Shown: positions 1,772 to 36,004, numbered from the stretch's first letter. The stretch is 37,261 nt of DNA from Candidatus Stahliibacteriota bacterium (GCA_030627085.1 DAOUSS010000003.1:1-37261); one strand, 5' to 3'. The notes: generated from the sequence alone by a model not told the origin. Program-made: numbers and translations.

Positions 1772-1998
1772 ACCACAAAGTTCACAAAGGACACAAAGTT
1801 TAAAAAATAAATAGCTTCTCTTTGTGTGCTTTGTGGTTTAAATAAAAAGAAATAAGTCCTTCTGTATTGATTAAGTTTTACCACACCTGTCTACCGACAG
1901 GTAGAAAGTTCACAAAGAATAAGAGATTTATTTAAAAAGTCAACATAATTAATTTCTCTGAAAATTCAAAATCTTGGTGTTCTTCGTGCCTTTGTGGT
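1772..1998. repeat. Two gene-less inverted 9-mer array elements (ACCACAAAG...CTTTGTGGT)
   Basis: 1772-1837: accacaaag ttcacaaag gacacaaag ... ctttgtgtg ctttgtggt. 1880-1998: same ends, with a 20-nt insert at 1886-1905. Confidence 0.8.
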
Positions 1999-2013
1999 GA
2001 AAAAGGAGGTCAT

Positions 2014-2634
2014 ATGCAATTATTTCTGTTACCCTTAATATTCCTTGCATCGGAGATAAAACTCCCCAAAGTGGAAACAGGGGATATGTCTCTTGAGGAA
2101 GCAATAAAAAGAAGGAGATCGGTACGAAGTTATGAGAAAACTGAACTCACACTACAACAGCTCTCTCAACTCCTGTGGGCTTCACAGGGCATTACGGATT
2201 CTGTGAGGGGATTTCGTTCTGCTCCATCTGCAGGCGCCCTCTATCCCCTCAAGGTATATCTTATCAAAAAAGATGGTATCTTTGAATATATACCATCTTC
2301 ACATTCAATAGTAAAAAAGGTGGATGGTGATAAAAGAGGAGAACTTTGTAAGGCGGCGCTATGGCAAAGTTTTATAAAGGAGGCGCCTGTAAGTTTTGTC
2401 ATAACCGCCATATACGAACGCACAACTGTAAAATACAGGGAAAGGGGTATAAGGTATGTGCATATAGAGGTGGGCCACTCTGCCCAGAATATTCACCTTG
2501 AGGCAGTTGCTCTGGGGCTCGCATCCGTTCCTGTCGGTGCATTTAAGGACGACGAGGTAAAAAAGGTGCTTTTCCTTCCTCCCTCTGAAGAACCACTGTA
2601 TATAATCCCTGTGGGATATGCAAGGGGACAATGA
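2014..2634 (+). CDS. SagB/ThcOx-like nitroreductase-family FMN oxidoreductase
   Basis: Motifs RRRSVRSY, LSQLLWASQG, RSAPSAGALYP, EVGHSAQNIHL and PVGAF; RBS AAGGAGG upstream. Confidence 0.85.
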   Translation: MQLFLLPLIFLASEIKLPKVETGDMSLEEAIKRRRSVRSYEKTELTLQQLSQLLWASQGITDSVRGFRSAPSAGALYPLKVYLIKKDGIFEYIPSSHSIVKKVDGDKRGELCKAALWQSFIKEAPVSFVITAIYERTTVKYRERGIRYVHIEVGHSAQNIHLEAVALGLASVPVGAFKDDEVKKVLFLPPSEEPLYIIPVGYARGQ

Positions 2635-2647
2635 TGGATTTTTCCCC

Positions 2648-2676
2648 TTGACAGGTGGGAAAAAATGTAGTATAAT
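2648..2676 (+). promoter_or_regulatory. Consensus sigma70 promoter
   Basis: TTGACA (2648-2653), 17-nt spacer, TATAAT (2671-2676). Confidence 0.8.
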
Positions 2677-2684
2677 ATTATTGG

Positions 2685-2837
2685 ATGACGCGAAATTGCA
2701 ATCCACAGAGATCAGATTATAATGGTAGTTATTTCTATTTTCCAGCCCAACCCCATTCCACTAATTGGCTTGATTGGGCACCACCACCCGATAAGTTGAT
2801 CCTTAATCGGAAGGAGGGAGCCCCGCCAATTGAATAA
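2685..2837 (+). other. Candidate leaderless 50-aa ORF and/or structured small RNA
   Basis: ATG lies 8 nt after the -10 box. Translation: MTRNCNPQRSDYNGSYFYFPAQPHSTNWLDWAPPPDKLILNRKEGAPPIE. Nested stems at 2763-2831. Confidence 0.35.
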
Positions 2838-2929
2838 GTTTAGCATAAATATGATGTTATTGCGACATAAAAGTTAAAAAACAGGTTGAAATTTGACATT
2901 ACATATAAAAAGGTAGTGTCAAATAGAAT

Positions 2930-3384
2930 ATGAAAGAATATGACAAACCACACCTGCCTGCCGTCAGGCAGGGAGGTCACAGAGTAAATTTAATTCTCTG
3001 TGCTCTCCAAAAGAGTTTCCTCTGAAAGATATAACGGAAAAGATAATTGCATGTGCGATTGAGGTTCATTCAAACTTGGGTCCTGGATTATTGGAAAGCG
3101 TTTATGAAGAAGCATTGGCATATGAATTTGAGTTGAGGGGAATTAATTTTGAAAGACAAAAAGAGATTATGCTTGAATACAAGGGGAAGAGTATAGGTCC
3201 GCATCGGGTAGATTTTTTAATAGAAGGGCAAGTGATATTAGAGATAAAGGCAACAGAGGGAATGAAGAAGATATTTGAGGCACAGGTTTTAACATATATG
3301 AAAGCAATAAAGAAAAAAGTGGGACTACTTATAAATTTCAATGTAGAAAGGTTGAAAGACGGGATAAAAAGATTGGTCTTATAA
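2930..3384 (+). pseudogene. GxxExxY protein (PD-(D/E)XK nuclease-like fold), 5' end apparently frameshifted by a 20-nt insertion
   Basis: Motifs GPGLLESVYE, RVDFLIEGQVILEIKA, AQVLTY and GLLINF. The typical N-terminus (ITEKIIACAIEVH) lies upstream of the TTG at 3076 with no in-frame ATG. Deleting 2953-2972 joins ATG 2930 in frame. Confidence 0.7.
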
Positions 3385-3457
3385 GAGGTCACAGAGGGGA
3401 GGGAGAACAATCTTTTGTAATTCCTTAATACTGAACATTCTCTGTGTTCTCTGTGGT
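2947..3457. mobile_element. Inverted 9-mer array element enclosing the GxxExxY gene
   Basis: Left end accaca[insert]gag gtcacagag; right end ctctgtgtt ctctgtggt; same end type as the empty copies. Confidence 0.55.
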
Positions 3458-3497
3458 TAGATTTTTGACAATACTCTAATAGAGAATAGGAGGGGAT

Positions 3498-3848
3498 ATG
3501 AAGGACTTAAGTGAACTTCGGATATATAAGCTAGCCGTTGATGTAGGAGAGTTGGTCTGGGAAGGAGTACAGGAATGGGAGAATTTTGCAAAGTGGACAA
3601 TCGGTAAGCAAGTTGTGGAATCCGCTGATGGTATTTCAGCTACTATGATGGAAGGATACTATCGCAACCAACCTGGAGACAAAAGGAAATTCTTCCAATA
3701 TGCACTATCATCTGCGAAAGAGACCGAGCTATGGTGCTGGAAAGCAAAAAATCGCAAAATTATGCCTTTGGAAAGGTATTCAGAGATCAAACAGTTGATA
3801 GATGACCTCTTGCCTCAATTAGTCAATTTCATAAAATCGATCCACTGA
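3498..3848 (+). CDS. Four-helix-bundle protein (23S rRNA IVP / Avd-like family)
   Basis: 116 aa; motifs ELRIYKLA, KQVVESADGISATMMEGYYR and FFQYALSSAKE; RBS AGGAGG. Confidence 0.85.
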   Translation: MKDLSELRIYKLAVDVGELVWEGVQEWENFAKWTIGKQVVESADGISATMMEGYYRNQPGDKRKFFQYALSSAKETELWCWKAKNRKIMPLERYSEIKQLIDDLLPQLVNFIKSIH

Positions 3849-3850
3849 TA

Positions 3851-3892
3851 CACCATTCCCTATTAACCATTCGCCATTCACTATTCACTAAT
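3851..3892 (+). repeat. 7-mer tandem array downstream of the four-helix-bundle gene
   Basis: ccattcc ctattaa ccattcg ccattca ctattca ctaat; short complementary remnant aatagagaatagg at 3478-3490. Confidence 0.75.
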
Positions 3893-3940
3893 CTGCCTAC
3901 CTACCCGCCTGACGGCAGGCAGGTAAGGAATTGAAACGAG

Positions 3941-3968
3941 GTAGGGGCGTATTGCAATACGCCCCTAC
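3941..3968. repeat. GTAG-type REP, perfect 28-bp palindrome between convergent genes
   Basis: GTAGGGGCGTATTGCAATACGCCCCTAC. Confidence 0.9.
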
Positions 3969-4038
3969 AGTTTAGGTGATAGTTATCGTAAAGCGTGAGG
4001 TGTAAATAGTAAATTGGAGGGGGGTAAAGGAATGTAAA

Positions 4039-5439
4039 TTATCCCAGGTTCAAGATGTTTTTTATCTCATCTACGAGTTGGGATACTTTTACTCTCTTCT
4101 GTCCAACCCTTGCTTCAAGCCACTTCTTCCTGTCACCTATCTCTTTCTCTATCCTCTCTTTTGCCCGTAAATCCTTTATTGAAACAATATCTTCTTTAAA
4201 TTCATCCTCACCAATTATTAAAGCAATAGGTATATCTTTCTTATCCGCATACTTCAGTTGTTTTCCAATTCCTTCTTCCCCGAGATAGACCTCTGTATTT
4301 ATGCCGTTCTCCCTCAATTTAAAGGCAAGTTTATGATATTCAACGAGTTTATCTCTCACCATACAGGTAATGAGGACATCTATATTATTCTTCCTTCGTT
4401 TTACAAGTCCCAGTTTCTGCATTGCCAAAACAAGTCTGTCCACACCTATAGATGCGCCTGTAGCAGGTATATCTTTGTCCATAAACTGTCCAATAAGCCT
4501 ATCGTATCTGCCTCCGCCCATAATACTCCCATATCCGGGTGCGTCCAGAAGTATCGCCTCATACACAGGACCTGTATAATAATCCAATCCTCTTGCTACT
4601 ACGAAATCAATTACTACCTTATCTTCGTCAATACCAACACCCTCAAGGTATCTGTCTATCTCTCTTAACTCTTCTATTCCCTCACAGTCTCCAAGAAGTA
4701 AAGTAACTGAATCGAGAGCCTCTTTTTGAGCCGCCTGCGGGAGCATAATAAACTCTTTTATTTTATCAATCTGTTCTTTTTTTAGAAAAAGTCCCCTTAT
4801 CTCTGCACCCGATGCATCAACCCTGCCCTCTCCCAATTCAGCAAGAACAGCATCAAGACCCTGTTTGTCAAGTTTATCAATCACACGAAATACCGAATGT
4901 GAAAGGGATGGCTCTATGCCAGCAAATCTAATCACCTCTTCTAGTATTTTTCTGTTGTTTATCCTTATCTTGAACCTTGCCACTCCGAGTGCCTTTATGG
5001 ACTGATACATAGCAGCTATAATCTCTGCATCTGCTATCACAGAAGAGATTCCAACTGTGTCTATATCAAATTGTAGAAACTCCCTGAACCTCCCCTTGTC
5101 AGGTTTATCATACCTGAATACTTCCTGTATCTGGTATCTTCTGAATGGCATTTCAAGGTTTTTATATTGTGCTATAACACGAGAAAGAGGGGATGTGAGG
5201 TCATACCGCAACCCTATGCTAATCTCATCAGGGTCACGGAAGGTGTATATCTGTTTGTTTGCTTCCTCCCCATACCCTACAAGAATGTCCTTGTATTCAA
5301 GGGCAGGAGTTGCGAGTGGAGAGAATCCATAGGATTCATACACCCTCTTTATTGTGGATACTACCTCCTCACGGGCCACTATCTCATCTGAGAATATGTC
5401 CTTGAATCCCTTGAGTGTTCTGGGTTCTATCTTTTTCAT
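4039..5439 (-). CDS. hisS: Histidine--tRNA ligase
   Basis: Motifs LRYDLT, FRYDKPDKGRFREFLQFDID, RGLDYYTG and GGGRYD; C-terminal anticodon-binding domain (KQLKYADK). Confidence 0.97.
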   Translation of the reverse strand: MKKIEPRTLKGFKDIFSDEIVAREEVVSTIKRVYESYGFSPLATPALEYKDILVGYGEEANKQIYTFRDPDEISIGLRYDLTSPLSRVIAQYKNLEMPFRRYQIQEVFRYDKPDKGRFREFLQFDIDTVGISSVIADAEIIAAMYQSIKALGVARFKIRINNRKILEEVIRFAGIEPSLSHSVFRVIDKLDKQGLDAVLAELGEGRVDASGAEIRGLFLKKEQIDKIKEFIMLPQAAQKEALDSVTLLLGDCEGIEELREIDRYLEGVGIDEDKVVIDFVVARGLDYYTGPVYEAILLDAPGYGSIMGGGRYDRLIGQFMDKDIPATGASIGVDRLVLAMQKLGLVKRRKNNIDVLITCMVRDKLVEYHKLAFKLRENGINTEVYLGEEGIGKQLKYADKKDIPIALIIGEDEFKEDIVSIKDLRAKERIEKEIGDRKKWLEARVGQKRVKVSQLVDEIKNILNLG

Positions 5440-5514
5440 ATTAATTCACCAATTCCTATAGAGGAAGACTTATCAGGTTGTGCAAAAAGTCAAGATATAA
5501 TTTTGGAGAACTCT

Positions 5515-5537
5515 CGCAACTTAAAAGTTGCGGCTAC
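5515..5537 (-). repeat. GTAG-type REP
   Basis: Minus strand reads GTAGCCGCAACTTTTAAGTTGCG. Confidence 0.8.
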
Positions 5538-5667
5538 CAGATTAACGGGTAATCAAGGCTATGTGGTTCCTCCTACTTATACGAGTCTATAACGAAGGAT
5601 ATACAGCAGACTCTGGCTAAATCAAATTTTACATTTTGATGTTTGACTTTTGGTTTTTTCACAAGAT

Positions 5668-5696
5668 ATTATACACCAAAAAACCAGATATGTCAA
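5668..5696 (-). promoter_or_regulatory. Consensus sigma70 promoter facing hisS
   Basis: Minus strand: TTGACA (5696-5691), 17-nt spacer, TATAAT (5673-5668). Confidence 0.75.
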
Positions 5697-5711
5697 GAAA
5701 AAATTGGGCTC

Positions 5712-5895
5712 CCACAGAGAACACAAATAGGTTAAATATTAAAATGCAAAATTAAATTCCAAAATCCAAATGACAAACGGAGGTGGATGTTAGTCATTAG
5801 GCACTGGTCATTGGCCATTAGTCATTGGGCATTTTATTGGAAATTGGTAATTGGAAATTTGATATTATAATTGGCGTTCTTGGTGTCTTGGTGGT
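5712..5895. repeat. Nested inverted arrays: a 7-mer element inside a 9-mer element
   Basis: Order: ccacagagaacacaaa / aaattccaaaatccaaatgacaaa / gtcattggccattagtcattg...ttggaaattggtaattggaaattt / cttggtgtcttggtggt. Confidence 0.7.
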
Positions 5896-5922
5896 TATGA
5901 ATATAGAGGAGTATAAAAATAC

Positions 5923-5951
5923 TTGACATTTCCAAAATGGTATGATAAAAT
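5923..5951 (+). promoter_or_regulatory. sigma70 promoter with extended -10
   Basis: TTGACA (5923-5928), 17-nt spacer, TG-n-TAAAAT (5946-5951); ATG follows at 5962. Confidence 0.75.
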
Positions 5952-5961
5952 AATAGCACTT

Positions 5962-6489
5962 ATGAAAAATATACTTTTAACAGGCAGGCCTGGTATCGGA
6001 AAAACAACCCTCATTTTGAAAGTAGTGAAAACTCTAAATATTGACGCAAGGGGATTCTACACACGAGAGATAAGAAAGGGTAGTGCGCGGGTGGGATTTG
6101 AGATTGTGGAGATAGGCAAAGACAATGCTAAAAGAGAGAGATTTGCACATATCGATTTTGATAAAAGATACAGGGTAGGCAAGTACGGAGTGAATATATC
6201 TATACTCGATGAGATCGGTGTAGAGGCAATAAAAAAGGGCATTGAAGAGAAAAAACTGATAATTATAGATGAAATCGGAAGGATGGAGTTATATTCAAAA
6301 AGATTCCGGGAGATGGTTATCCTTGCTCTAAATTCGTCATCGCCCGTCTTGACAACCATCACTATGAGCCCTCTTCCATTCGTACAGGATATTAAGCAAA
6401 GAAAAGATGTGACTATTTTAGAGATAACAAGAGACAACAGGAATAAGCTTTCAGATGAGATTATCACAAACTTTCAAGCCCTTCCATAA
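5962..6489 (+). CDS. THEP1/NTPase_1-family nucleoside triphosphatase
   Basis: Walker A GRPGIGKT; motifs GFYTREIR, RVGKYGVN and IIIDEIGRME. Start moved to ATG 5962 because the TTG at 5923 is the -35 box. Confidence 0.9.
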   Translation: MKNILLTGRPGIGKTTLILKVVKTLNIDARGFYTREIRKGSARVGFEIVEIGKDNAKRERFAHIDFDKRYRVGKYGVNISILDEIGVEAIKKGIEEKKLIIIDEIGRMELYSKRFREMVILALNSSSPVLTTITMSPLPFVQDIKQRKDVTILEITRDNRNKLSDEIITNFQALP

Positions 6490-7970
6490 ATTTCGGTCAT
6501 TTCCCTGAGCTTTCGTTTCAGCGCCGGTGTTATCTCGTCAGGTAGAAGTCGCCACTCCCAATTTCCTTTGGAGGTAGCAGGTCGGTTCATTCGAGCCTCT
6601 TCTCCCAGACCGAGAATATCCTGCATAGGAAAGATAACCATATTTGCAACAGACATCATAGTAAGTCGAATTAATTCCCAGTGAAGTTCTTCAAAAGGTA
6701 CCTCTCTCCCTATATAACAAAACAATCTCTTTCTTTCGTTAGACTTTGCTTCTCTCTCAAACCATCCCTTTATTGTATTATTGTCATGAGTCCCTGTATA
6801 GAAAACACAGTTTCTCACTACATTATGGGGTATGTAAGGATTTTGGGGGAAGCTTTCACCAAATGCAAAGAGAAGAACCTTCATTCCCGGGAACTTGTAA
6901 CGCTTCATTACATCTCTTACATCAGGTGTGATGACACCAAGGTCTTCAGCAATGATAGGTAAATGGGGAAATCTATCTTTAAGTTTATTAAAGAAATCCA
7001 TTGCTGGAGCCTTTATCCACTTGCCGTTAACAGCGGTCTTTTCTGTTGCCGGAACTTCCCAGTAGGCAACAAAGCCACGAAAATGGTCAACCCTTACAAA
7101 ATCGAATAAATTCAGATTATGCTCTATTCTCCGCAACCACCAATCATACCCCTTCTCCTTTAACATTTCCCAGTTATACAATGGATTTCCCCATAGTTGC
7201 CCCGTTTCACTGAAATAGTCCGGGGGCACACCGGCAACAACGTAAGGTCTTTTTTCGTTGTCAAGTTTAAATATCTCATGATGAGACCAGAGGTCCACAC
7301 TATCATAACTGACATAAATAGGTATATCTCCCATGATTTTAATACCTTTTTTATTAGAATATCTTCTGAGAGACAACCACTGTCTTGCAAAGACATATTG
7401 AATAAATTTTTCCCTCTCAATTTCATTATGAAGTTTCTCTTTTAAAGACCGCAAAGCCTCCGGCTGTTTATCCCGTATCTCAGTCGGCCATTCGCACCAA
7501 GCCTGACCGCGGAAATATACTTTAAGTGCAAGAAAAAGGGCATAATCTTCAAGCCAATAAGAATTTCCTGTACAGAATTCCTTGTATTCACGATTATTTC
7601 TCATCTTTTTAAAGCGCTCATAAGCAAGATTAAGAAGGTTTTTCTTGTAATTGCTAACCCCTTCATAATCGACTTTATCAGCGGGGAATTCAGATAAAGA
7701 AGAAATGTCCTCTCTTTTAACTAAACCGTCTCTTTCTAAAAGTTCCGGGCTTATTAGTAATGAGTTTCCTGCAAAAGCAGATATCGTGCCGTAAGGGGAA
7801 TTACCATAGACTAAATCTGTTGAGGCGAGAGGAAGAATCTGCCATAGACTCTGTTTGGTCTCAACAAGAAAATCGGCAAATCTGTAAGCCTCCGGTCCCA
7901 TATCCCCGATGCCGTATGGGGAAGGAAGGGATGTAATATGTAAAAGAATACCGCTTCCTCTTTTCATCAT
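6474..7970 (-). CDS. malQ: 4-alpha-glucanotransferase (amylomaltase, GH77)
   Basis: Motifs GILLHITSLP, GVPPDYFSETGQLWGNP, RVDHFRG, IAEDLG, YTGTHDN and RMNRP; start set at MMKRGSG. Confidence 0.95.
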   Translation of the reverse strand: MMKRGSGILLHITSLPSPYGIGDMGPEAYRFADFLVETKQSLWQILPLASTDLVYGNSPYGTISAFAGNSLLISPELLERDGLVKREDISSLSEFPADKVDYEGVSNYKKNLLNLAYERFKKMRNNREYKEFCTGNSYWLEDYALFLALKVYFRGQAWCEWPTEIRDKQPEALRSLKEKLHNEIEREKFIQYVFARQWLSLRRYSNKKGIKIMGDIPIYVSYDSVDLWSHHEIFKLDNEKRPYVVAGVPPDYFSETGQLWGNPLYNWEMLKEKGYDWWLRRIEHNLNLFDFVRVDHFRGFVAYWEVPATEKTAVNGKWIKAPAMDFFNKLKDRFPHLPIIAEDLGVITPDVRDVMKRYKFPGMKVLLFAFGESFPQNPYIPHNVVRNCVFYTGTHDNNTIKGWFEREAKSNERKRLFCYIGREVPFEELHWELIRLTMMSVANMVIFPMQDILGLGEEARMNRPATSKGNWEWRLLPDEITPALKRKLREMTEIYGRA

Positions 7971-7977
7971 ATAATTA

Positions 7978-8098
7978 AGTCGTTGAGTCATCGGGTCGTT
8001 GAGTCATTGGGTCATTGAGTCATTGGGTCGTTGGGTCCACAGGACGCTAAGACCCTACGACGCTAAGACGCTATGACGCTAAGACGCTATGACGCTAT
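7978..8098. repeat. Gene-less inverted 8-mer array element
   Basis: About 7 x GTCRTTGR, a 5-nt spacer, then 7 x GACGCTAN; ATTA on both sides (7974-7977 and 8097-8100). Confidence 0.9.
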
Positions 8099-9647: not shown

Positions 9648-9654
9648 AATATTA

Positions 9655-13674: not shown

Positions 13675-13688
13675 TTCCCCTCCTATAC

Positions 13689-13748
13689 ATTAGGTCATTT
13701 GGTCATTAAGTCATTAGGTCATTAAGCACGATTTGAAATCGTGCCTAC
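13689..13748. repeat. 8-mer array arm plus GTAG-type REP
   Basis: (ATTAGGTC-like) x4, then GCACGATTTGAAATCGTGCCTAC. Confidence 0.8.
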
Positions 13749-13749
13749 A

Positions 13750-16807: not shown

Positions 16808-16878
16808 GGTTAGTTGGTAATTAGGGCATTAGGTGATTGGGCTATTGAGGTCATTGCACGATTAAAAATCGTGCCTAC
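16808..16878. repeat. Degenerate 8-mer arm plus GTAG-type REP
   Basis: ggtaatta gggcatta ggtgattg ggctattg; GCACGATTAAAAATCGTGCCTAC. Confidence 0.7.
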
Positions 16879-16943
16879 ATCTACAAGACAATAATTCCTG
16901 CAAGCGTAAGTTGAATTCGTGTCTATACTGATATTCCGAGTTC

Positions 16944-24780: not shown

Positions 24781-25022
24781 AGAGTTCTAATAGGGCTTCA
24801 CAAAACTAAAGGTCATTGAAATCTGCGGTGTTATGGAATTCCTTGCGAGACAACGGATTACGATAGCACTCATTTCTAGGGAACTTGGCTGAATTTTGCT
24901 TCAAATTCATAACGCATTGATACGCAAGGACTTACAAGGTGGAGGTGAAATCAAAAAGCAGGCTGCTTGTAATCCTATAAATAGCAAGGGATTACGAATT
25001 TTGTGAAAGGCAAGAGTTCTAA
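24781..25022. mobile_element. MITE-like element with 10-bp flanking direct repeat
   Basis: AGAGTTCTAA at 24781-24790 and 25013-25022; imperfect terminal inverted repeats with core TTCACAAAA/TTTTGTGAA; no ORF. Confidence 0.7.
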
Positions 25023-27192: not shown

Positions 27193-27225
27193 TCGTTCTC
27201 TATGATTGGAACTGAAATTGTTAAA

Positions 27226-27257: not shown

Positions 27258-27273
27258 GTAAAATACGCATAAT

Positions 27274-27372: not shown

Positions 27373-27381
27373 GAAGATAAA

Positions 27382-30300
27382 ATGAAAAATTTCCTGTTTA
27401 TTATTATACTTTTTGCCCTTCCCCTGCTTTCTCAGAATCAGGCGTGGTGGGAACCGGAGAATCCCTCTCCGGGAGATTCTGTAACAATATATTATAACAC
27501 AAGACTGGGAACACTGCCTGAGAATAGTGACTGGATAAAGCTCCACTGGGGCGTAAATGGATGGACACTTCCTTCAGAGAGTCTGTGGCCACCGAATACT
27601 ACCCCATGGGAAGATAGCTGTGCCGTTGAATCCCCTATGATACCGGAAGACGACACAATATGGACCATACCACTCACAACTAACGAGATCGTTGAAACAA
27701 TAGATTTTTGCTTTCATGGTAATACTGATTGGGATAACAACTCCGGAGCAGATTGGCATATATATTTAGGTGAACTCCCAGCGATAATCCCCGTAAGATT
27801 TATTCTGGATACCCGTAGCTGTAATTTTTCATATACAGGCTCATCTATAACCGGGGTAAACCTCGCAGGCTCATTCAACGGATGGTCCACTACCGCAATG
27901 CCTATGACACAGACGGAGAACCCATATATATGGGAGAGATGGGTTGATCTTTATGAAGGAACGTACGAATATAAATTTGTGATAAATGGCCATGTATGGG
28001 TCCCTGACCCCGACAATCCACGCTACACAGGTGAATTCCAGAATGCAGTTGTTATAGTGAAAAAGGATATATGCCCAAAGATAGATATTGAATCTCCACG
28101 ATGTGGGTCTGTATTTTATGATACCACATCTATAGATGTAATAGCAATTGTGAAAAAGGGAGATGATGGAATACCGATAGACGAATCATCTATTATAGTA
28201 ATAATCGACAACGATTCCCTATCTTACCTCTTTGACCCTGACAGTCTTATCATCACAGCAAATGCATCTGGACTCTCATACGGCCTTCATCTAATTTCTG
28301 TATCTTTATCGGATACGGCAGGCAATGCTACAGAGAAAACATCCTCCTTCGGAATATACCCATCAGGGAGCGGATATCATGCCATTGACGCATTCTATGA
28401 TGAAAACTACTTATACCCGGATTATGTTGCAGATGGCACATGCGATATAAAGGATCTTAACATAAAAAAGAATGCCGATTCACTTAAATTCACAGTTTTC
28501 ATCAGAAATCTTTCAGAGTATACGAAACTCGCTATGCAGATATCAACTATGGATGTAGCACCTATGGTTGAAACTTCACTCCCATTGGAAATAAAAACAA
28601 GGGAATGGAATGGCAGTGGTGTCTTCCTTACAGTTATAGATCCATCTTCACCATCTTTTAATCCTTCTTTTGATAACAGAATCTATATTCAAAGGTATCC
28701 ACCAGCGCTGGGTGACTCTATAGATGTAACTGTATCAGGTGATAGCCTTATCTTTAATATCTCTGTCTCACTCCTTGAGAGTATTCTCGGCAGTTACAAT
28801 GTTCCCTGGTATTTTTACCTATTCTCATTCATTCCTGATTTTGAGCCCGACTCATCTGTTGCTGGGAACGACCTTATTATAGACCCTGATATATACGATG
28901 CAGTCTTTTTTGAAACTAAAGACCTTGAAGATAAACTCCTTGCAAATTACATACCTGATGGGTCTTTGGGTGGTCCAAGAATGGCATCACTTGATGGCGT
29001 TGGAAGGGGTATTGGAAAGATAGAGGCATACGATATAGACAGCTCGCTCTTCAACCCAGGTCCTGTTGTAAGACTTCTGACCCGTAGCGGGGTTGTATAT
29101 GACTCTATATACCCAGTTGACGGAACAATAAGTGATGCTGATATAAATGAGGCAATTCTCACCATAAATGGGATAGACACAACAATATCCGTATCTTCAG
29201 GATTTTTCTCCGTCCCGATAAGGCTTGTAGAAGGTGATAATATAATATCATGCAGGGCAGAAAATAACGAAGGAGTTGGCTCTTCTCCGTCAATAAATCT
29301 TGAACTTTTTGTAGACCATACGCCAAAGGCAGTCATTGATACGGTGTATCTTGAGAGCAATAATATCTATGTCAATGGAAGTACAAGTTATGACCCTGAT
29401 GGCAATGAACTTACATATCTCTGGTTTCAAGATAGCCTTAATCCGCAGGAGATAATATTCAGCATCCCAAATTCTGCGATAACATCCTTTTCGGTACCAT
29501 CTGTGAATGGAGAATACTACTTTAATCTTATGGTGGAAGACCCTGACGGAAATCGGGATTTTGCCAGAAGTTTCATAACCGTGAGAGATGGGGATGTAAG
29601 CATCGCAGGAACAGATAGTATCGCAGATTGGATAAGAAATGCGATTGTCTATGAGATCTTTCTGCAGTCGTTCAGTGATAAAGGGAATTTTAGGGGGGTG
29701 AGTGAAAAAATCTCCCAAATTAAGGACCTCGGGGTAAACTGCATCTGGTTTATGCCGATAAATCCAAGCACATATACAAATGGCTACTCTGTCACAGACT
29801 ATTATGGCATAAGGACGGATTACGGCACAGAGGAAGATCTCAAGGAACTACTTACGCTTTGCACGGAAAATGGTATAAAAGTAATAATTGACCATGTCGT
29901 AAATCACTGCTCAAATCAACATCCCTGGATGGTAGATGCACAGTGTTTTGGAGAATATTCCCACTTCTATAATAATTTTATGTGGGATGCAGGCGGAAAT
30001 TACCATTACACGGCAGGTGCCGATTTGCCTGATTTGAACTATGGTAATGAACATCTAAAGGAATATCTTCTTGATATGGCAGAATACTGGCTCACCGAAT
30101 TTGACATATACGGGTTCAGGTGTGATATGGCGTGGGCAGTGGAGCAAAGAGACAATACATACTGGAGGCTATGGAGGAAGAGGCTTAAATCCAAAAAGCC
30201 CGAGGTGTTTTTGCTTGCAGAGGCGACTTCAACAGATTTTACATATTTTCAGTCAAGATTTGATGCAGCCTATGATTGGAACCTTCATCACGAGTCACCT

Positions 30301-31233
30301 GCCAGTTTTGCGAAAATATTTGACGGTGGTGTAACTGGTGAAGATATAAATACGCTTCATAACACCATAGTAAACTATGGATATTCATTCCCAAAGGATA
30401 GATTCCCTCTGAGATTTTTAGAAAATCATGATGAGACAAGATATATAGCGTATCATACACCCGAACAGACCAAACTTATGGCAGCCTTGCTTCTCACAAT
30501 TCCGGGTATTCCACTCATATATTCTGGACAGGAAGTTGGAGAGCTCACCCTTAGAGATAGAATTGACTGGAGTGACCCTAATAACCTGAGACCGTATTAT
30601 AAAAAACTCTGCTGGATAAGGAATAACTTCTCTTCTATAAGAGAACCGAATATTACACGCATCAATGCATCGTCGCAAACAGTGTACTCTTTTTATAGAA
30701 AAAACAGTGAGAATACAGTGATATGTGGTTTTAACTTTTCCCCTGGTGGAAACACAGGCCCATTATCCATACCTATTGATTCACTTGGAATAGAGCCTGA
30801 CTCGACATACTATATGAATGATGTATTGAGTAACAAGTATAAGCAAGTTTCGGGTTCCGAGCTTTCGAGTTTTGTTGTTAATTTCCCTGGATACGGGGCA
30901 AAGATATGGGTGCTCGCGGATTCAATAATAACAGGTGTTGAGAAATCCCCTGTCTATATAAATAAACTCTGTCAAAACTATCCAAATCCATTTAAGGGAA
31001 CTACAGATATTAGATTCCAGATTTCAGATTTTAGTAAAGTCTCGCTAAAGGTATATGATGTATCTGGAAGACTGGTAAGGACACTTATAGATGGAAAGCT
31101 TGAGGCAGGTTCTCACAGTGTAAGATGGAATGGAAGAGACGATAGAGGAAGAAAGGTGGGGAAAGGTATCTATTTCTGTAGACTTACTATCGGTGAGTTT
31201 AGAGACACACAGAAGATGGTGCTTTTGAGGTAG
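27382..31233 (+). CDS. Secreted multimodular GH13 alpha-amylase-family enzyme with starch-binding modules and T9SS-type CTD
   Basis: Signal peptide; LHWGVNGW...WDNNSGADW (CBM25/53-like); LAGSFNGW...YEYKFVING (CBM48-like); SYDPDG PKD-like segment; GH13 motifs DHVVNH, GFRCDMA, LLAE and FLENHD; QNYPNPF CTD. Confidence 0.88.
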   Translation: MKNFLFIIILFALPLLSQNQAWWEPENPSPGDSVTIYYNTRLGTLPENSDWIKLHWGVNGWTLPSESLWPPNTTPWEDSCAVESPMIPEDDTIWTIPLTTNEIVETIDFCFHGNTDWDNNSGADWHIYLGELPAIIPVRFILDTRSCNFSYTGSSITGVNLAGSFNGWSTTAMPMTQTENPYIWERWVDLYEGTYEYKFVINGHVWVPDPDNPRYTGEFQNAVVIVKKDICPKIDIESPRCGSVFYDTTSIDVIAIVKKGDDGIPIDESSIIVIIDNDSLSYLFDPDSLIITANASGLSYGLHLISVSLSDTAGNATEKTSSFGIYPSGSGYHAIDAFYDENYLYPDYVADGTCDIKDLNIKKNADSLKFTVFIRNLSEYTKLAMQISTMDVAPMVETSLPLEIKTREWNGSGVFLTVIDPSSPSFNPSFDNRIYIQRYPPALGDSIDVTVSGDSLIFNISVSLLESILGSYNVPWYFYLFSFIPDFEPDSSVAGNDLIIDPDIYDAVFFETKDLEDKLLANYIPDGSLGGPRMASLDGVGRGIGKIEAYDIDSSLFNPGPVVRLLTRSGVVYDSIYPVDGTISDADINEAILTINGIDTTISVSSGFFSVPIRLVEGDNIISCRAENNEGVGSSPSINLELFVDHTPKAVIDTVYLESNNIYVNGSTSYDPDGNELTYLWFQDSLNPQEIIFSIPNSAITSFSVPSVNGEYYFNLMVEDPDGNRDFARSFITVRDGDVSIAGTDSIADWIRNAIVYEIFLQSFSDKGNFRGVSEKISQIKDLGVNCIWFMPINPSTYTNGYSVTDYYGIRTDYGTEEDLKELLTLCTENGIKVIIDHVVNHCSNQHPWMVDAQCFGEYSHFYNNFMWDAGGNYHYTAGADLPDLNYGNEHLKEYLLDMAEYWLTEFDIYGFRCDMAWAVEQRDNTYWRLWRKRLKSKKPEVFLLAEATSTDFTYFQSRFDAAYDWNLHHESPASFAKIFDGGVTGEDINTLHNTIVNYGYSFPKDRFPLRFLENHDETRYIAYHTPEQTKLMAALLLTIPGIPLIYSGQEVGELTLRDRIDWSDPNNLRPYYKKLCWIRNNFSSIREPNITRINASSQTVYSFYRKNSENTVICGFNFSPGGNTGPLSIPIDSLGIEPDSTYYMNDVLSNKYKQVSGSELSSFVVNFPGYGAKIWVLADSIITGVEKSPVYINKLCQNYPNPFKGTTDIRFQISDFSKVSLKVYDVSGRLVRTLIDGKLEAGSHSVRWNGRDDRGRKVGKGIYFCRLTIGEFRDTQKMVLLR

Positions 31234-31239
31234 CTGATT

Positions 31240-31262
31240 GCACGATTTGAAATCGTGCCTAC
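31240..31262 (-). repeat. GTAG-type REP between convergent genes
   Basis: GCACGATTTGAAATCGTGCCTAC. Confidence 0.9.
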
Positions 31263-31267
31263 ATTAC

Positions 31268-32275
31268 CTATACTGCTACTGCTTTCTCGCTGTATCCGAG
31301 TGAGAATGCCATAATTATTGCATTACACTCACACTTCTTATAACAGAGCGCACACCCTATACACTTTGAAAGGTCAACCTTGTGTTGCTCTCCTTTTTCT
31401 CCTGTTATTGCATCAGTAGGACATACTGATTTACATTCCTCACATCCAGTACAGTTTGTCCCAATCATTGCCCTTGGTCTTGATGCTGCCTTATCTACTA
31501 TGCACTTTGTCGGACATTTTAAAATACATATTGTCGCATTTTCGCATACAGCAGGGTCTATCCTTGCTAAGTTGTTTTCTACCTTTATCGCACCATAAGG
31601 ACAGTTCTTCTCACAGAGTTTGCAAGCAATACACCCTGCACTACATACCTTCTTCACCAAAGGCGCTTTTAATCTTGAATTACAGGCAACATATACCTTT
31701 TGTGTTTTGGGAATAAGCTCAAGAACATCTCTGGGACACTCTTTAACGCATAATCCACATCCTGTGCACTTATCATCCGCTATGAGAGGTAGTCCATCGT
31801 CTCCCATTTTAATTGCATCAAACGGACATACCCTTTCACAGTTCCCATACCCAAGACAGCCATACTCACATCCCTTATTCCCTTTCTGTATCAGGTCTGC
31901 AGCAACGCAATCCATAAGACCGTCATAAATAAATCTCTCCTTTGCTTTGTTCTTATCTCCTCCACACCGTAACACTACAACCATTGGTTCAATCTCTGAT
32001 GGTGCAACACCGAGTATCTCGGAAATTTTTTTATCAATCTCTTCCCCGCCAACAGGACAGAATCCTGCACTCTTGCCAGATTTGGCGAGGGCAGCGGCAA
32101 ACGCCTCGCATCCAGGATACCCACAGCTACCACAGTTCGTACCTGGCAGTATCTGAATAAGGTTTCTTTCGATTTCTGAATGTGTTACTGCAAGTTTCGT
32201 ATAGGCAAATGTAAGACCCAGCCCTAATATAAGTCCAAGTCCTCCAAGCACCACAACCGCTGTCATTACTGTCAT
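31268..32275 (-). CDS. rnfB: Rnf electron transport complex subunit B (long polyferredoxin form)
   Basis: N-terminal TM helix; LPGTNCGSCGYPGC; CPVGG; GCLGYGNCERVCPFDAI; several CxxCxxCxxxC motifs. Start set at ATG 32275 after GGGGG. Confidence 0.9.
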   Translation of the reverse strand: MTVMTAVVVLGGLGLILGLGLTFAYTKLAVTHSEIERNLIQILPGTNCGSCGYPGCEAFAAALAKSGKSAGFCPVGGEEIDKKISEILGVAPSEIEPMVVVLRCGGDKNKAKERFIYDGLMDCVAADLIQKGNKGCEYGCLGYGNCERVCPFDAIKMGDDGLPLIADDKCTGCGLCVKECPRDVLELIPKTQKVYVACNSRLKAPLVKKVCSAGCIACKLCEKNCPYGAIKVENNLARIDPAVCENATICILKCPTKCIVDKAASRPRAMIGTNCTGCEECKSVCPTDAITGEKGEQHKVDLSKCIGCALCYKKCECNAIIMAFSLGYSEKAVAV

Positions 32276-32327
32276 AAAACCCCCTGCAATAGAGTTAGAT
32301 TTTGTAAAAACTGATACATCGAAGGTT

Positions 32328-32381
32328 GTAGGCACAAATTGAATTTGTGCTGTTATTTGCACGGTTTGAAACCGTGCCTAC
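32328..32381. repeat. Convergent REP doublet
   Basis: GTAGGCACAAATTGAATTTGTGC ... GCACGGTTTGAAACCGTGCCTAC. Confidence 0.9.
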
Positions 32382-32403
32382 AAGTTGTCCGTGAAGCAAG
32401 TTT

Positions 32404-32679
32404 CTAATCACAGATACAGGGTGTCTTACTACACTTCGGGCATCCATTCTCGTATTTTCTTATAGCGTCTTCCATACTCACATCCACTATATTCGCTATA
32501 GAGAAAAGCCAGGCAGTACAGTCAGCCAGTTCCTCCTCAAAATTCTGTTCATTTCTTATTGCCCTTGCGAGTTCACCTACTTCCTCAACAAACCAGGTAA
32601 ATGTTCCTTCAATCCCCCTGTCTGCATCTTTCCTTAAGTATATCTCTTTTATCTTCTTCTGAAATTCGTCTATGGTCAT
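32404..32679 (-). CDS. MazG-like nucleotide pyrophosphohydrolase
   Basis: WFVEEVGELARA, EEELAD; C-terminal CPKCSKTPCIC. Confidence 0.88.
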   Translation of the reverse strand: MTIDEFQKKIKEIYLRKDADRGIEGTFTWFVEEVGELARAIRNEQNFEEELADCTAWLFSIANIVDVSMEDAIRKYENGCPKCSKTPCICD

Positions 32680-32718
32680 CTTCTATCCTTTCGCAAGATA
32701 AAGTATTGTCAAAAATCT

Positions 32719-33016
32719 AACCACAGAGAGCACAGAGAATTACAGAGTAATAAAGAATCGCAGAAGATTTTCATCTCTCTCCTCTGTGACCTCTCTCTAA
32801 GACCAATTTCTTTGTCCCATTTTTTTAAACCACAAAGAACACAAAGTGTCTTTAACACGAAGTGTCTCTAACCCAGAAGTAGCAGAACCCATTGAGAAAG
32901 AATCTAAAATTTGAAAAATCTCCCTGTGTTCTCTTGGAATCTCTGTGAACTCTGTGGTTAAAAAGTAGGCACGATTTCAAATCGTGCAAATTGGCACAAA
33001 TTGAATTTGTGCCTAC
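32719..33016. repeat. 9-mer inverted arrays followed by a REP doublet
   Basis: accacagag agcacagag; accacaaag aacacaaag; ctctgtgaa ctctgtggtt; GTAGGCACGATTTCAAATCGTGC...GCACAAATTGAATTTGTGCCTAC. Confidence 0.8.
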
Positions 33017-33046
33017 AATTTTGGCTTAATGTTTGATGTGTAAAAA

Positions 33047-33856
33047 TCATGCTTTACCAATAAGTTCCATTATCATAGTTGCTGACTCTTCTATCGATTT
33101 CGATGTAACATCAATAACCATCCAGCCCATTCCGTTAAATATTTCATTACTGTATTTTATCTCTTCCTTTATTTTGTCTATATCTGTATATCTATCACCC
33201 AAGTCTATAATAAGACGACTTGCCCTTGCTGCCCTTATTGCCTGGAGTCTATCAGGTCTTATAGTCAATCCTATAACCTTTCTCCTATTAAGTTCATAAA
33301 TCTGGCGTGGGAGCTCAACTCTCATTATCACGGGCACATTCGCAATCTTATATCCTCTGTAGGATAGATAGATACTTATAGGTGTCTTTGAGGTTCTGGA
33401 AACCCCAACAAGTACAAGGTCAGCAAGGTGTAGATCCTCTGGCTTACATCCGTCGTCATGATTTACCGCGAAATCTATTGCCTCAATCCTTGCAAAATAA
33501 TCCTCATCAAGATGCCTAAAAAGACCAGGTAGTGCAAGAGGTGAAATCTCAAGAAGGTCGGTGAATCTTGAAAGAATAGGTCCCATAATATCAATTGTAG
33601 GGACAGCCCTCTTAATTCCCTCCCTATGCATCACCTTCCTGAACTCTGGAGAAACAAGTGTAAAGACTACAACTCCTTGAACCTTACTGGCTTCCTCAAC
33701 AACCTCTTTTACCTGCTTTATATCTCTCACATACTGAACTTTGTGAAGTATAGCCTTCGAGGTATCAAATTGAGTAAGAGCAGCCTTTACCACAAGCTCA
33801 CAGGTGTGTCCTGTAGCATCGGACACAATAAATATATGTCTCTGTCTTCCCGGCAT
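33047..33856 (-). CDS. ppsR: PEP synthetase / pyruvate phosphate dikinase regulatory kinase-pyrophosphorylase (DUF299)
   Basis: Motifs VSDATGHT, YFARIEAIDFAVNHDDG, LVGVSRTSKTP and IDVTSKSIEE. Confidence 0.92.
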   Translation of the reverse strand: MPGRQRHIFIVSDATGHTCELVVKAALTQFDTSKAILHKVQYVRDIKQVKEVVEEASKVQGVVVFTLVSPEFRKVMHREGIKRAVPTIDIMGPILSRFTDLLEISPLALPGLFRHLDEDYFARIEAIDFAVNHDDGCKPEDLHLADLVLVGVSRTSKTPISIYLSYRGYKIANVPVIMRVELPRQIYELNRRKVIGLTIRPDRLQAIRAARASRLIIDLGDRYTDIDKIKEEIKYSNEIFNGMGWMVIDVTSKSIEESATMIMELIGKA

Positions 33857-33864
33857 ATATAGCC

Positions 33865-35058
33865 TCAACTACTCCCTGCTTCCAATCTTTTTATCAATTC
33901 AGGTATCACTTCAAACAGATCTCCTACTATGCCAAGATCTGCAACCTTAAATATAGGGGCATCCGGATCCTTGTTTATGGCAATGATATAATCCGATGAA
34001 GACATTCCTGCAAGATGCTGTATGGAGCCAGATATTCCACAGGCTATATATACCTTTGGTCTCACTGTTTTACCTGTCTGCCCAACCTGGTGAGAATACG
34101 GAATCCATCCATCATCCACAGGCGGTCTTGATGAACCAAGCGCTGCTCCAAGCAGGTCTGCAAACTCCTGTAAGAGTGCGAAGTTTTTCGCATTCTGGAT
34201 ACCTCTTCCCCCGGATACAATTATATCAGCATCTTCAAGATTTATCTTCTGTGTCTCATCAAGCACATCTTTCAATAATTCTGTCCGAGATGCTTTGGGT
34301 ACAAATTCTTCAATTACAACCTCTCCGTTTCTCTTCTGTTCTATTGCCTCCTCCATAACCTTATATCTTACGGTTGCCATCTGGGGCCTTCTGTGTTCGC
34401 ATATAATTTTTGCCATTATATTTCCGCCGAACGCTGGTCTGGTCTGAACTAAAAGCCCGTCCTCGTTTATATCAAGCCCCGTGCAATCAGCCGTAAGTCC
34501 TGTTTTAAGCCGCGCAGCAACTCTCGGGAGAAGACTTCTGCCCTCTGATGTTGCCCCGGCCAAAACTATCTCGGGTTTATATTTCTCTATCAAATAAGCG
34601 AGGGCATCGGTATATGGCTCTATCAAAAATTCCTTGAATGTCTCATTCCTTACTATGTAAACTGTATCAGCACCCCTTGCTATTATCCCATCTATAATTT
34701 CATCCCTGGTAGGAAACTCTTTATCCACGACCAATACAACAGCCAGTTCTGTATTTAACCTATCCGCCAGCTCTCTACCCTTGGAAAGTAATTCGTATAC
34801 CACTCTATGAATCCCATTCCTCGTCCTCTCACCGTATACCAATACCTTGTGATAATCTGAAGGAGGATGCAAGTGACTGGTTTCCTTCTCTATTACTATT
34901 GCCTCAAAAGGACACTCTGGCACACAGGCACCACACAGATTACAATTGTCAAGGTCTATGCGAGCAATTCCATCTTGTATACTGATTGCCCCATATGGAC
35001 AGACAGGTACACATGCTTCACATCCATTGCAACTACCCTCAATTACCTTTATTGACAT
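33865..35058 (-). CDS. etfA: Electron transfer flavoprotein alpha subunit with N-terminal 2[4Fe-4S] ferredoxin
   Basis: CNGCEACVPVCP and CNLCGACVPECP; GLTADCT; RPAFGGN; QVGQTGK; GISGSIQH. Confidence 0.95.
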   Translation of the reverse strand: MSIKVIEGSCNGCEACVPVCPYGAISIQDGIARIDLDNCNLCGACVPECPFEAIVIEKETSHLHPPSDYHKVLVYGERTRNGIHRVVYELLSKGRELADRLNTELAVVLVVDKEFPTRDEIIDGIIARGADTVYIVRNETFKEFLIEPYTDALAYLIEKYKPEIVLAGATSEGRSLLPRVAARLKTGLTADCTGLDINEDGLLVQTRPAFGGNIMAKIICEHRRPQMATVRYKVMEEAIEQKRNGEVVIEEFVPKASRTELLKDVLDETQKINLEDADIIVSGGRGIQNAKNFALLQEFADLLGAALGSSRPPVDDGWIPYSHQVGQTGKTVRPKVYIACGISGSIQHLAGMSSSDYIIAINKDPDAPIFKVADLGIVGDLFEVIPELIKRLEAGSS

Positions 35059-35076
35059 ATTACCTCCGAATATCTG

Positions 35077-35859
35077 TCAGGATGAGATATCTTTTAAAAA
35101 TTCTATTACCTTATCTGCTGCTTCTTCTCTGGTTCCCACAAATTTCTTTCCCATCTTTTTACGTTCGGGTGTAAATATCTTTATAACCTTTGTGGGAGAA
35201 CCTAACAATCCAACTCTTTCTTGTTCTGTTTCAATATCATTTAACCCCCAGTGGGGAATTTCTGCACTTTTTGCCTTTATCTTTCCCCGTAAGGATGGCA
35301 ACCTCGGCACATTTATCTCCTTTACCACTGTAAAAACTGCAGGAAGAGGAGTTTCTATCACCTGATATCCCCACTCTGTCATCCTTTCAACGACCGCTCT
35401 CTTTTCATCTATTTCTTCTATCTTTCGCACATAGGTAACCTGCGGAATCCCGAGTAGTTCCGCAATTTCAGGTCCAACCTGTGCGGTGTCTCCATCTATT
35501 GCTTGTTTACCACATAGTATCAAATCATAATCTCCTATCTTTTCAATTGCCTTCTTTAGTGTATATGAGGTTGCAAGGGTATCTGCACCCTTGAATTTCA
35601 CATCGGTAAGGAGAACCGCATTATCCGCACCCATACCTATTGCCTCCCTTAAAACATCTTCTGCCTGAGGCGGTCCCATAGACAGTACAATTACCTCTCC
35701 CCCACCTTTCTCCTTTATCTTAATTGCCTCTTCAACAGCATATGCGTCAAGGGGATTCATTATAGACGGTACTCCTTCTCTTATCAGCGTATTTGTTTCA
35801 GGGTCTATCTTAATATCCTGTGTATCAGGAACCTGCTTTATACATACAATAATTCTCAT
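35077..35859 (-). CDS. etfB: Electron transfer flavoprotein beta subunit
   Basis: MRIIVCIKQVPD, SMGPPQA, GADTLATS, GKQAIDGDTAQVGP; RBS AAGGAAGG. Confidence 0.95.
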   Translation of the reverse strand: MRIIVCIKQVPDTQDIKIDPETNTLIREGVPSIMNPLDAYAVEEAIKIKEKGGGEVIVLSMGPPQAEDVLREAIGMGADNAVLLTDVKFKGADTLATSYTLKKAIEKIGDYDLILCGKQAIDGDTAQVGPEIAELLGIPQVTYVRKIEEIDEKRAVVERMTEWGYQVIETPLPAVFTVVKEINVPRLPSLRGKIKAKSAEIPHWGLNDIETEQERVGLLGSPTKVIKIFTPERKKMGKKFVGTREEAADKVIEFLKDISS

Positions 35860-35924
35860 ACACCGCCCTTCCTTTTGTAGATTAAAATTTAGACATAATC
35901 CCGAAATGCTGTAATAATATCGTT

Positions 35925-36004
35925 GTAGGGACAGACCTTCAGGCCTGCCCGACCTGTCCTGCACGATTTAAAATCCCCGCCTGTGACGGGGCAGGCGTGC
36001 CTAC
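35925..36004. repeat. REP doublet, second REP interrupted by a 21-nt palindromic insert
   Basis: GTAGGGACAGACCTTCAGGCCTGCCC; GCACGATTTAAAAT[CCCCGCCTGTGACGGGGCAGG]CGTGCCTAC. Confidence 0.8.

Follow-up and report, generated by a model that had tools for sequence, protein, structure and literature searches.

A family of 20-nt elements in a Stahliibacteriota contig

The window, i.e., the whole stretch of DNA analyzed here, is an entire contig of 37,261 nt (GCA_030627085.1 DAOUSS010000003.1:1-37261) from the assembly of a Candidatus Stahliibacteriota bacterium, which comprises 1.93 Mb in 347 contigs with 40% GC and 94% completeness. It encodes the type IX secretion system (T9SS) protein PorV and sorting domains, a SusC-like receptor, RnfB, EtfAB, amylases, HisS (hisS), a GxxExxY protein, and a four-helix-bundle protein, and it carries four copies of a GC-rich palindromic element of only 20–21 nt, which is the subject of this study (Table 1). 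A cyanobacterial host was ruled out because of the depletion of HIP1 (3 sites vs. ~11 expected) and the presence of T9SS, SusC-like, Rnf, and Etf genes.

The four strings reported by the first-pass annotation are all present at their positions, copies 1 and 2 each follow ACCACA, and copy 3 differs at a single base from the reverse complement of copy 2 (19/20 identical). As the annotation had described, copy 1 splits a repeat and copy 4 a repetitive extragenic palindromic (REP) sequence that are found intact elsewhere in the window. It had also listed the four as related copies: copies 1 to 3 do form one 20-nt family, whereas copy 4 is a member of a 21-nt subfamily that is related to it (YCCCGCCTKTGACGGGRCAGG). 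The pattern CCTGYCTRCCGNCAGGYAGR, allowing at most two mismatches, matches three loci in the window and none in each of 100 shuffles. No Rfam match was obtained within the window.

Table 1. The four copies, their host sequences, and intact counterparts in the window (| marks the point of insertion)
Feature	Position	Strand	Remarks
Copy 1, variant A (CCTGTCTACCGACAGGTAGA)	1886..1905	+	27 exact copies in the genome; hairpin nt 1–16
Host repeat ACCACA|AAGTTCACAAAG, interrupted by copy 1	1880..1917	+	8 empty sites elsewhere in the genome match the joined flanks
Empty (intact) paralogue of the copy 1 target	1773..1789	+	
Copy 2, variant B (CCTGCCTGCCGTCAGGCAGG)	2953..2972	+	14 exact copies in the genome; plain 8-bp hairpin
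GxxExxY (PD-(D/E)XK-like) gene	2930..3384	+	frameshift at codon 8 caused by copy 2; TIGR04256 match
CTGCCTACC, possible 5′ remnant of another copy	3894..3902	+	
Copy 3, diverged B variant, opposite orientation	3904..3923	+	1 exact copy in the genome
Copy 4, 21-nt sister subfamily (CCCCG CCTG TGA CGGGG CAGG)	35975..35995	+	1 exact copy in the genome
GTAG-type REP (TGTAGGCACG...CGTGCA), interrupted by copy 4	35960..36005	−	split between loop and 3′ arm as TGCACGATTTAAAAT|CGTGCCTACA
Intact copy of the REP split by copy 4	13726..13749	−	
Intact copy of the REP split by copy 4	16856..16879	−	
Intact copy of the REP split by copy 4	31240..31263	−	
Unoccupied target	24967..24989	−	identical to the flanks of the variant-A copy at C76:1007 when these are joined

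Copy 2 disrupts the GxxExxY gene: the frame that opens with the ATG at 2930 reads MKEYDKP, continues into the element, and meets a stop after 31 codons, and the body of the protein lies in a different frame, behind a stop at 2941. Next to copy 3, CTGCCTACC corresponds to nt 2–10 of the commonest variant and, judging from this match, is plausibly what remains of a further copy.

A genome-wide count of the motif, as suggested by the first-pass annotation, was made with the expression CCTG[CT]CT.{3,7}CAGG[CT]AG[AG] and yielded 116 loci in the window's own 1.93-Mb genome, where chance would give none; the reversed pattern gave no match in any of 41 genomes searched. Besides variants A and B, the main forms are variants C (CCTGCCTACCGGCAGGCAGG, 19 copies), D (CCTGCCTACCGCAGGCAGG, 19 nt, 12 copies), and E (CCTGCCTACCGTCAGGCAGG, 8 copies) and an unlettered 19-nt variant (CCTGCCTGCCGCAGGCAGG, 6 copies), the remaining loci being rarer forms. 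Only six adjacent pairs lie within 300 nt of each other, with gaps of 11–247 nt. The bias towards intergenic regions is strong, as only 19 of the 116 midpoints fall in stop-to-stop open reading frames (ORFs) of at least 120 aa, though such ORFs cover 85% of the genome. For the sister subfamily of copy 4, we found 23 matches with at most four errors (0.2 for shuffled queries), most of which occupy one identical point of two REP subfamilies.

Copies are gained and lost exactly, as units

Comparison of genomes showed that the family is mobile: its copies are present or absent exactly as units, in either orientation and without duplication of the target. The window's genome (G000; further genomes are given as G-numbers, contigs as C-numbers, and fetched loci as L-numbers) was compared with G003, in which the flanking genes are 94–98% identical. 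The 45 G003 loci taken comprise every variant-A site (19) and, from the 72 strand matches of a second pattern, the first 26 loci; they resolve into 55 distinct sites. Five of these are exactly empty in G000, with a gap of 0 and both flanks aligning to the last base (L034/C14, L036/C340, L052/C57, L062/C20, and L064/C185), and two nested doubles of ~40 nt in G003 are absent from G000 (L059/C130 and L034_121/C14). Four sites are occupied in both genomes and one more differs by a 4-nt slip; 24 have no syntenic flank pair in G000, and the rest are complex. Here and below, all instance counts refer to instances and not to independent events.

An exactly empty counterpart was also found for copy 2. 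In a homologous GxxExxY cassette from a different genus (G005:C8), the flanks are near-identical to those in the window, precisely the 20 nt of the element are missing (ATGACAAACCACA|GAGGTCACAGAG), and an ORF of 144 aa is intact. Within G000, BLAST searches with 12 + 12 nt of joined flanks reconstructed a pre-insertion site, i.e., an empty paralogue, for 61 of the 116 copies, compared to 4 of 300 random 20-nt deletions. Moreover, another family member is the host sequence of 17 of the 116 copies, for the most part with insertion at CCTGYCTRC|CGNCAGG. The same nesting occurs in one Bacteroidales, one Actinomycetota, one delta- and two gammaproteobacterial metagenome-assembled genomes, and in a phage contig. 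No duplicated flank bases are seen at any of the junctions displayed, including those of the exact empty/filled pairs, and where the flanks permit no shift the element ends are exactly CCTG...CAGG. The proposal of the first-pass annotation, a mobile unit far smaller than miniature inverted-repeat transposable elements (MITEs) that parasitises other repeats, is thus borne out by exact 20-nt presence or absence at orthologous or homologous sites, by the empty paralogues, and by the nested copies.

Some insertions are shared between genomes. The orthologous REP of G003 and G002 carries an insertion at the point of copy 4, in G002 in a shorter and diverged form; being common to all three genomes, this insertion is therefore old. 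The G003 orthologue has an additional 38-nt insertion nested inside. The intergenic region of copy 1 is wholly remodelled in G003, between two genes of 95–98% identity: a different family member sits in a different hairpin, and a REP loop (GTAGGGACAGGGC...GTCCCTGTCC; L006, G003:C350), opposite window positions 1740–1767, holds a 54-nt insertion that is absent from the window. Together, the 54-nt and 38-nt insertions indicate that other small elements also nest in hairpin loops. In Flagellimonas, the orthologous locus of G072 is occupied, and no empty allele was found.

Family members also differ in length by 4 nt. For example, G003 has a 20-nt CCTGTCTGCCGGCAGGCAGG (L052) and G000 a 16-nt CCTGCCGGCAGGCAGG (C57), and a groundwater contig of run X6 has a 4-nt deletion within copy 3, at 3914. 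Such slips among family members fit the 4-nt periodicity of the element.

A hairpin that is not itself mobile might instead have been spread by gene conversion, recombination, or co-amplification of larger host repeats, for example of a REP together with its insert by a RAYT. For 61 of the 116 copies, the surrounding sequence is itself a repeat, the near matches of copy 4 (23 in all) are mostly at the same point of two REP subfamilies, and several copies have long flanks in common; indeed, the sister subfamily of copy 4 may spread together with its REP. For the family we regard passive spread as improbable, given exact insertions for which no other filled paralogue exists (L036 vs. C340, L062 vs. 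C20), 82 sites with dissimilar flanks, both orientations at one target type, recurrent nesting at one internal point, and an identical 20-mer between ordinary single-copy genes in other phyla.

There is practically no chance that the copies are artefacts of assembly or library preparation. The assembly is fragmented (347 contigs) and the evidence comes from contigs rather than raw reads, but identical insertions are found at orthologous sites in separately assembled genomes, and the family is present in cultured isolates and complete chromosomes with flanks of 28–71% GC. In addition, copy 3 is bridged by independent contigs of four runs (X1, X3, X5, and X6) labelled marine sediment, hydrothermal vent, and groundwater. 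Among the contig pieces listed, none bridges copy 1 or copy 2; loose contig ends show the empty forms ACCACA|AAGTTCACAAAG and AAACCACA|GAGGTCACAGAG, which may derive from paralogues.

Two overlapping hairpins

Family members share the layout X Y cc gN X′ Y′, e.g., CCTG TCTA CC GA CAGG TAGA. With this layout, a single strand has the choice between two overlapping 6-bp hairpins, which leave 4 nt single-stranded at the 3′ end in one case and at the 5′ end in the other; in a perfect palindrome, both use the same CCTGCC/GGCAGG stem. For the analysis of covariation, 82 instances from G000 were combined with 284 from elsewhere, giving 366 with unique contexts. Positions 5 and 12 are C:G in 177, T:A in 102, and A:T in 7 instances, with C-T in 53 and C-A in 12; positions 8 and 17 are G:C in 213 and A:T in 54, with A-C in 97; positions 5 and 20 are C:G in 243, T:A in 49, and T.G in 64; and positions 13 and 16 are invariant. 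This pattern supports two 6-bp hairpins, predicted to span nt 1–16 and nt 5–20, and not only a plain 8-bp palindrome. When folded as single-stranded DNA, variant A pairs nt 1–16 into the 6-bp hairpin and leaves the last 4 nt as a 3′ tail (−4.8 kcal/mol, z −3.2) and variant B an 8-bp hairpin (−8.7 kcal/mol, z −4.5). The sister subfamily has the same layout, with covariation of C1/G17 vs. T1/A17.

Targets of insertion

After filtering at 75% flank similarity, the 116 copies correspond to 82 non-redundant sites. A stem of at least 5 bp spans the junction at 17 of these, compared to 6.7% of 5000 random non-coding positions, and the enrichment was replicated in other phyla and at viral loci (12 of 81 vs. 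5.6% and 10 of 80 vs. 4.9%). Hairpin loops or dyads are therefore favoured about threefold, yet they account for a minority of the sites.

Favoured targets include the family's own loop, cut at CTRC|CG (CCTGCCTAC|CGGCAGGCAGG), and the loops or dyads of other small hairpins, such as the dyad-symmetric CTCTTT|AAAGAG. Recurrent among them are GCGACTRG|RAAGTCGC, the REP, TTCTCTTT|CAATCCCTG, and AAGGCTTA|CGCCTT, for which an empty unit lies beside a filled one in a tandem array. A further recurrent target is CACR|RA at codon 8 of GxxExxY genes, i.e., close to their start. At the level of single bases, there are only tendencies: T is found at −2 in 11 of 21 variant-A sites and in 21 of 32 sites of variants C, D, and E. 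On its right, variant A is followed by [AT]A[AG]G, position +2 being A in 16 of 21 sites and position +4 being G in 15 of 21.

The 42 nt directly 5′ of copy 2 (2911–2952) comprise a promoter or leader and the first eight GxxExxY codons. This segment is found at 98–100% identity in two genera, at many loci of G001–G006, and the alignments break off precisely where copy 2 is inserted. With 10 matches in G000, GxxExxY cassettes are present in multiple copies, and they have a conserved 5′ leader whose CACAGAG repeats encode KPQRSQS.

In several records from Patescibacteria and Bacteroidota (L105, L126, L139, L140, and L144), the element lies inside or against tRNA-like sequence, e.g., in a T-loop (GGTTC|AAGTCC). 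When the 20 nt were deleted in silico, ARAGORN predicted a junction-spanning tRNA only in L144, an odd one of 86 nt; in L109 the element merely abuts a tRNA.

Some of these features would also be expected from insertion of double-stranded DNA, either by a dimeric site-specific nuclease or recombinase that acts on the palindrome or by end-joining capture of excised 20-bp palindromes. Insertions are blunt, free of duplications, and found in both orientations, the targets are often dyad-symmetric (CTCTTT|AAAGAG), and no Y1 gene is tied to the family. However, no candidate gene was found for such a route, end-joining capture would produce neither exact recurrent junctions nor a fixed CTRC|CG point, and the covariation favours two shifted hairpins over a simple duplex palindrome. 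We therefore consider a double-strand route as improbable as passive spread. A Type IIS enzyme with the site ACCTGC and a 4/8 cut would cut at the self-insertion point; this idea was dropped because no 4-nt duplication is seen. Hairpin recombination of the integron-attC or Xer type was judged unlikely by reasoning, 20 nt being too short for two recombinase sites.

Distribution across bacteria and phages

The family is widespread across many phyla and also occurs in phages, and thus is not lineage-specific. Within the phylum of the window, 15 of 41 genomes have a match, 11 of them with at least 13 strand matches. All four genomes of the window's genus have 82–192 strand matches each, and one genus of the same family has none. 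Copy number varies ~100-fold between related genomes. A scan of 596 Gb of genomes found at least 121 stretches with a match, with an estimated chance yield of ~70 for the whole collection. Among the 80 of these loci that were stored, Bacteroidota (~33), Patescibacteria (~17), and Proteobacteria sensu lato (~11) are most frequent, and Ignavibacteriota, Omnitrophota, Planctomycetota, Nitrospirota, Chloroflexota, Actinomycetota, and Bacillota are also represented. The flanks of these loci are not random: nested copies are found among them, as are CCACAGA|TTCACAGAT targets. Five of the genomes with such loci were re-searched whole and have 1–6 sites each (control 0), which sit between ordinary genes. 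Carriers include cultured isolates of Flavobacteriia and Sphingobacteriia as well as complete chromosomes; Winogradskyella, Gaetbulibacter, Olivibacter, and Flagellimonas are among the carrier genera.

In IMG/VR, 92 stretches have a match. One viral record of 28.8 kb (G048; L321/L322), which has a D5-type primase gene as well as portal and coat genes that are P22-like, contains at least 12 copies, among them nested copies and copies within ORFs: a nested 42-nt pair lies inside the open frame of the primase, and another copy is found where the portal ORF ends, in its last codons. Among the copies is a local variant of 21 nt, a multiple of three, which is in-frame in phage ORFs. In one viral contig only, GTAG precedes three of seven copies.

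We tentatively raise the possibility, doubtful as it is at present, that the family represents a pan-bacterial, phage-borne 20-nt "double-hairpin" transposon whose two overlapping hairpins would be used as both ends by a trans-supplied enzyme that cuts and ligates single strands, and which would be the smallest self-defined mobile DNA known. The same rather uncertain reading would take the expansion to 100–190 strand matches per genome in the anaerobic lineage, the persistence of 1–6 copies in Bacteroidota, Patescibacteria, Nitrospirota, and others, and the 21-nt form in-frame in phage genes as aspects of one element.

Alternatively, the hairpin could mainly be a functional site under selection, such as a protein-binding site, terminator, or RNA motif, whose mobility is incidental. 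A sequence that is near-identical across distant phyla and strongly intergenic would be expected in this case. Other observations make a functional site less likely still than passive spread or a double-strand route: the copies have no preferred orientation with respect to adjacent genes, the window gave no Rfam match, a gene is frameshifted by copy 2, copies lie within phage ORFs, and copy number is spread ~100-fold among related genomes.

A putative single-strand route of movement

On balance, we think it probable that these are non-autonomous GC-rich elements of 19–21 nt which are moved as single-stranded DNA by an enzyme acting in trans. The element would leave its donor as single-stranded DNA, cut exactly at both ends, adjoining the hairpins, by a trans-acting nuclease-ligase that would also seal the donor. 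The 20-mer would then be pasted into single-stranded target DNA, a "peel and paste" as carried out by the Y1 HUH enzymes of IS200/IS605 or REP-RAYT systems. Each of the two shifted hairpins would expose one end of the element, 4 nt from the hairpin foot. Exact gain and loss without duplication, hairpin dependence, the preference for loops, and the shifted hairpins together fit peel-and-paste of the HUH type in trans. The single-strand intermediate and the enzyme class are both what we infer from these features, and that the enzyme is specifically of the HUH type is a more tentative suggestion than the general model.

A mobilising enzyme is not encoded in the window, as the first-pass annotation had stated. 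G000 contains five genes with a PF01797 (Y1_Tnp) domain, each bounded by its own, different hairpin family: CCCACYGC...GTGGG for the gene on C264, GGGGTCAGRC for those on C286 and C196, GTAGGGGCG... for that on C207, and GTGTCAGGAG... for that on C84. A family copy lies within 200 nt of the C264 and C207 genes, on a single side only. The Y1 gene on C207 contains an in-frame duplicated GTAGGGGTTCAATATATT REP, and that on C84 has a TPDTT repeat at its end. Besides G000, eight of ten other element-bearing genomes were found to have PF01797.

Several observations count against the single-strand model or its enzyme. About 80% of the sites have no obvious hairpin loop, and the left flanks lack a fixed tetranucleotide of the kind that an IS608-like enzyme needs, showing only T at −2 and R at +2. 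Variants B and E disrupt the 5–12 pair (C-T, 53 instances). An HUH or RAYT enzyme flanked by the same motif, which the first-pass annotation had proposed to look for, did not turn up: none of the five Y1 genes in the 94%-complete G000 is flanked on both sides by the element. No Y1 clade tracks the element in phyletic tests over 41 genomes. The C207 type is present in the element-free G010, G019, G022, G025, and G028 and was not found in the element-rich G001, G012, G016, and G037; the C264 type occurs in only 6 of 41 genomes, and the C286 type in 31 of 41 irrespective of the element. PF01797 was not found in two of the ten other carriers, G012 and the Nitrospiraceae chromosome G044. Lastly, the copies show no strand bias relative to genes (20 same, 12 opposite).

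In G016, orientation switches in 6 of 19 adjacent pairs, which is not significant; along G016:C2, GC skew changes with the orientation of the genes and reveals no replichore. The GxxExxY gene was rejected as a linked gene: it is present in all 14 carriers with at least two strand matches but also in 13 of 26 genomes with at most one, and none was found beside the element at 10 loci in other phyla.

Comparison with other small mobile elements

The family is one of the smallest mobile DNA units seen. By description, its closest known kind may be the small dispersed repeats (SDRs) of cyanobacteria. SDR1–8 of heterocyst-forming hosts (Elhai et al. 2008, Genome Res 18:1484) are likewise very short, dispersed, thought to be mobile, and without a known enzyme. 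SDRs are reported to be 21–27 nt long, to nest within each other, and to have a common hairpin fold. Like SDRs, the window family is inserted precisely into otherwise conserved sequence and into other repeats of its kind; unlike them, it is 19–21 nt long, has a non-cyanobacterial host and different targets, crosses phyla, and is found in phages. The first 50 of 354 kb of Nostoc punctiforme pNPUN01 contain no family copy and no repeated insert in HIP1, and none of the family's 20-mers occurs in the main text of the papers searched.

To our knowledge, how repeats of ~20 nt move has been an open question since the cyanobacterial SDRs were described, and we know of no enzyme or intermediate. The present family contributes pairs of empty and filled sites that differ exactly by the element, a point of self-insertion that is fixed, and a two-hairpin layout with covariation, which hints at the positions of cutting. 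As it is present in cultured isolates and in a P22-like phage, the question of movement can be tested at the bench. Such elements also frameshift genes, as copy 2 does, remodel intergenic regions between near-identical genomes, and break assemblies.

MITEs differ in having terminal inverted repeats, a target-site duplication, and a length of 50–500 bp, whereas the family is 19–21 nt long and shows no duplication at any exact empty/filled pair. With IS200/IS605 it has in common exact excision and insertion without duplication and, as far as can be inferred, hairpin dependence and single-stranded targets. IS608 targets TTAC, and some targets of the family (TTA|C, CTA|C) resemble this site. Unlike an IS200/IS605 element, a unit of 20 nt is too short to have distinct left and right ends; the tetranucleotide beside it is not a fixed one, and no cognate TnpA was found.

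Rickettsia palindromic elements exceed 100 nt and are small hairpins that invade genes too; the in-frame 21-nt copies in phage ORFs recall them. These elements and those of organelles differ from the family in that they reside in obligate-intracellular or organellar genomes, are longer, and are unrelated in sequence. Organellar GC clusters and repetitive hairpin-forming elements, for example those of sponge mitochondria (PMC2800124), are likewise small hairpins which invade intergenic DNA and sometimes genes, and like the Rickettsia elements they are not known to have an enzyme.

REP/REPIN-RAYT systems (PMC3116915, PMC3733652) likewise consist of 20–40-nt GC-rich imperfect palindromes that are intergenic, high-copy, and free of target duplication, and REPs and REPINs carry a conserved GTAG or CGTC tag at one hairpin end (PMC3733652). 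G000 also holds RAYT-like genes and GTAG-tagged REPs. In contrast to REPs, the family has no 5′ GTAG/CGTC tag but starts with CCTG and ends with CAGG or TAGA, GTAG being only internal, on one strand of some variants. Its copies flank no Y1 gene and form no regular inverted doublets of fixed spacing, and they insert into REPs and into themselves.

A further GTAG REP at window positions 35926–35962 (GTAGGGACAGACCTTCAGG CCTGCCCGAC CTGTCC) resembles the GGACAGACCTTCAGGTCTGTCC hairpin of the genome with ~10 extra bases, which look like half a family member; this structure is kept in G003 and G002. Other abundant repeats of the genome are GACTGAAGTCTGCGGCTACC (31 copies), CGCAACTTAAAAGTTGCG (32 copies), and AACCACAGAG (116 copies). 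Tandem arrays of GAGAAGA are also present, and heptamer arrays such as AGATTAC/AGATTGT and TAATGAC adjoin elements.

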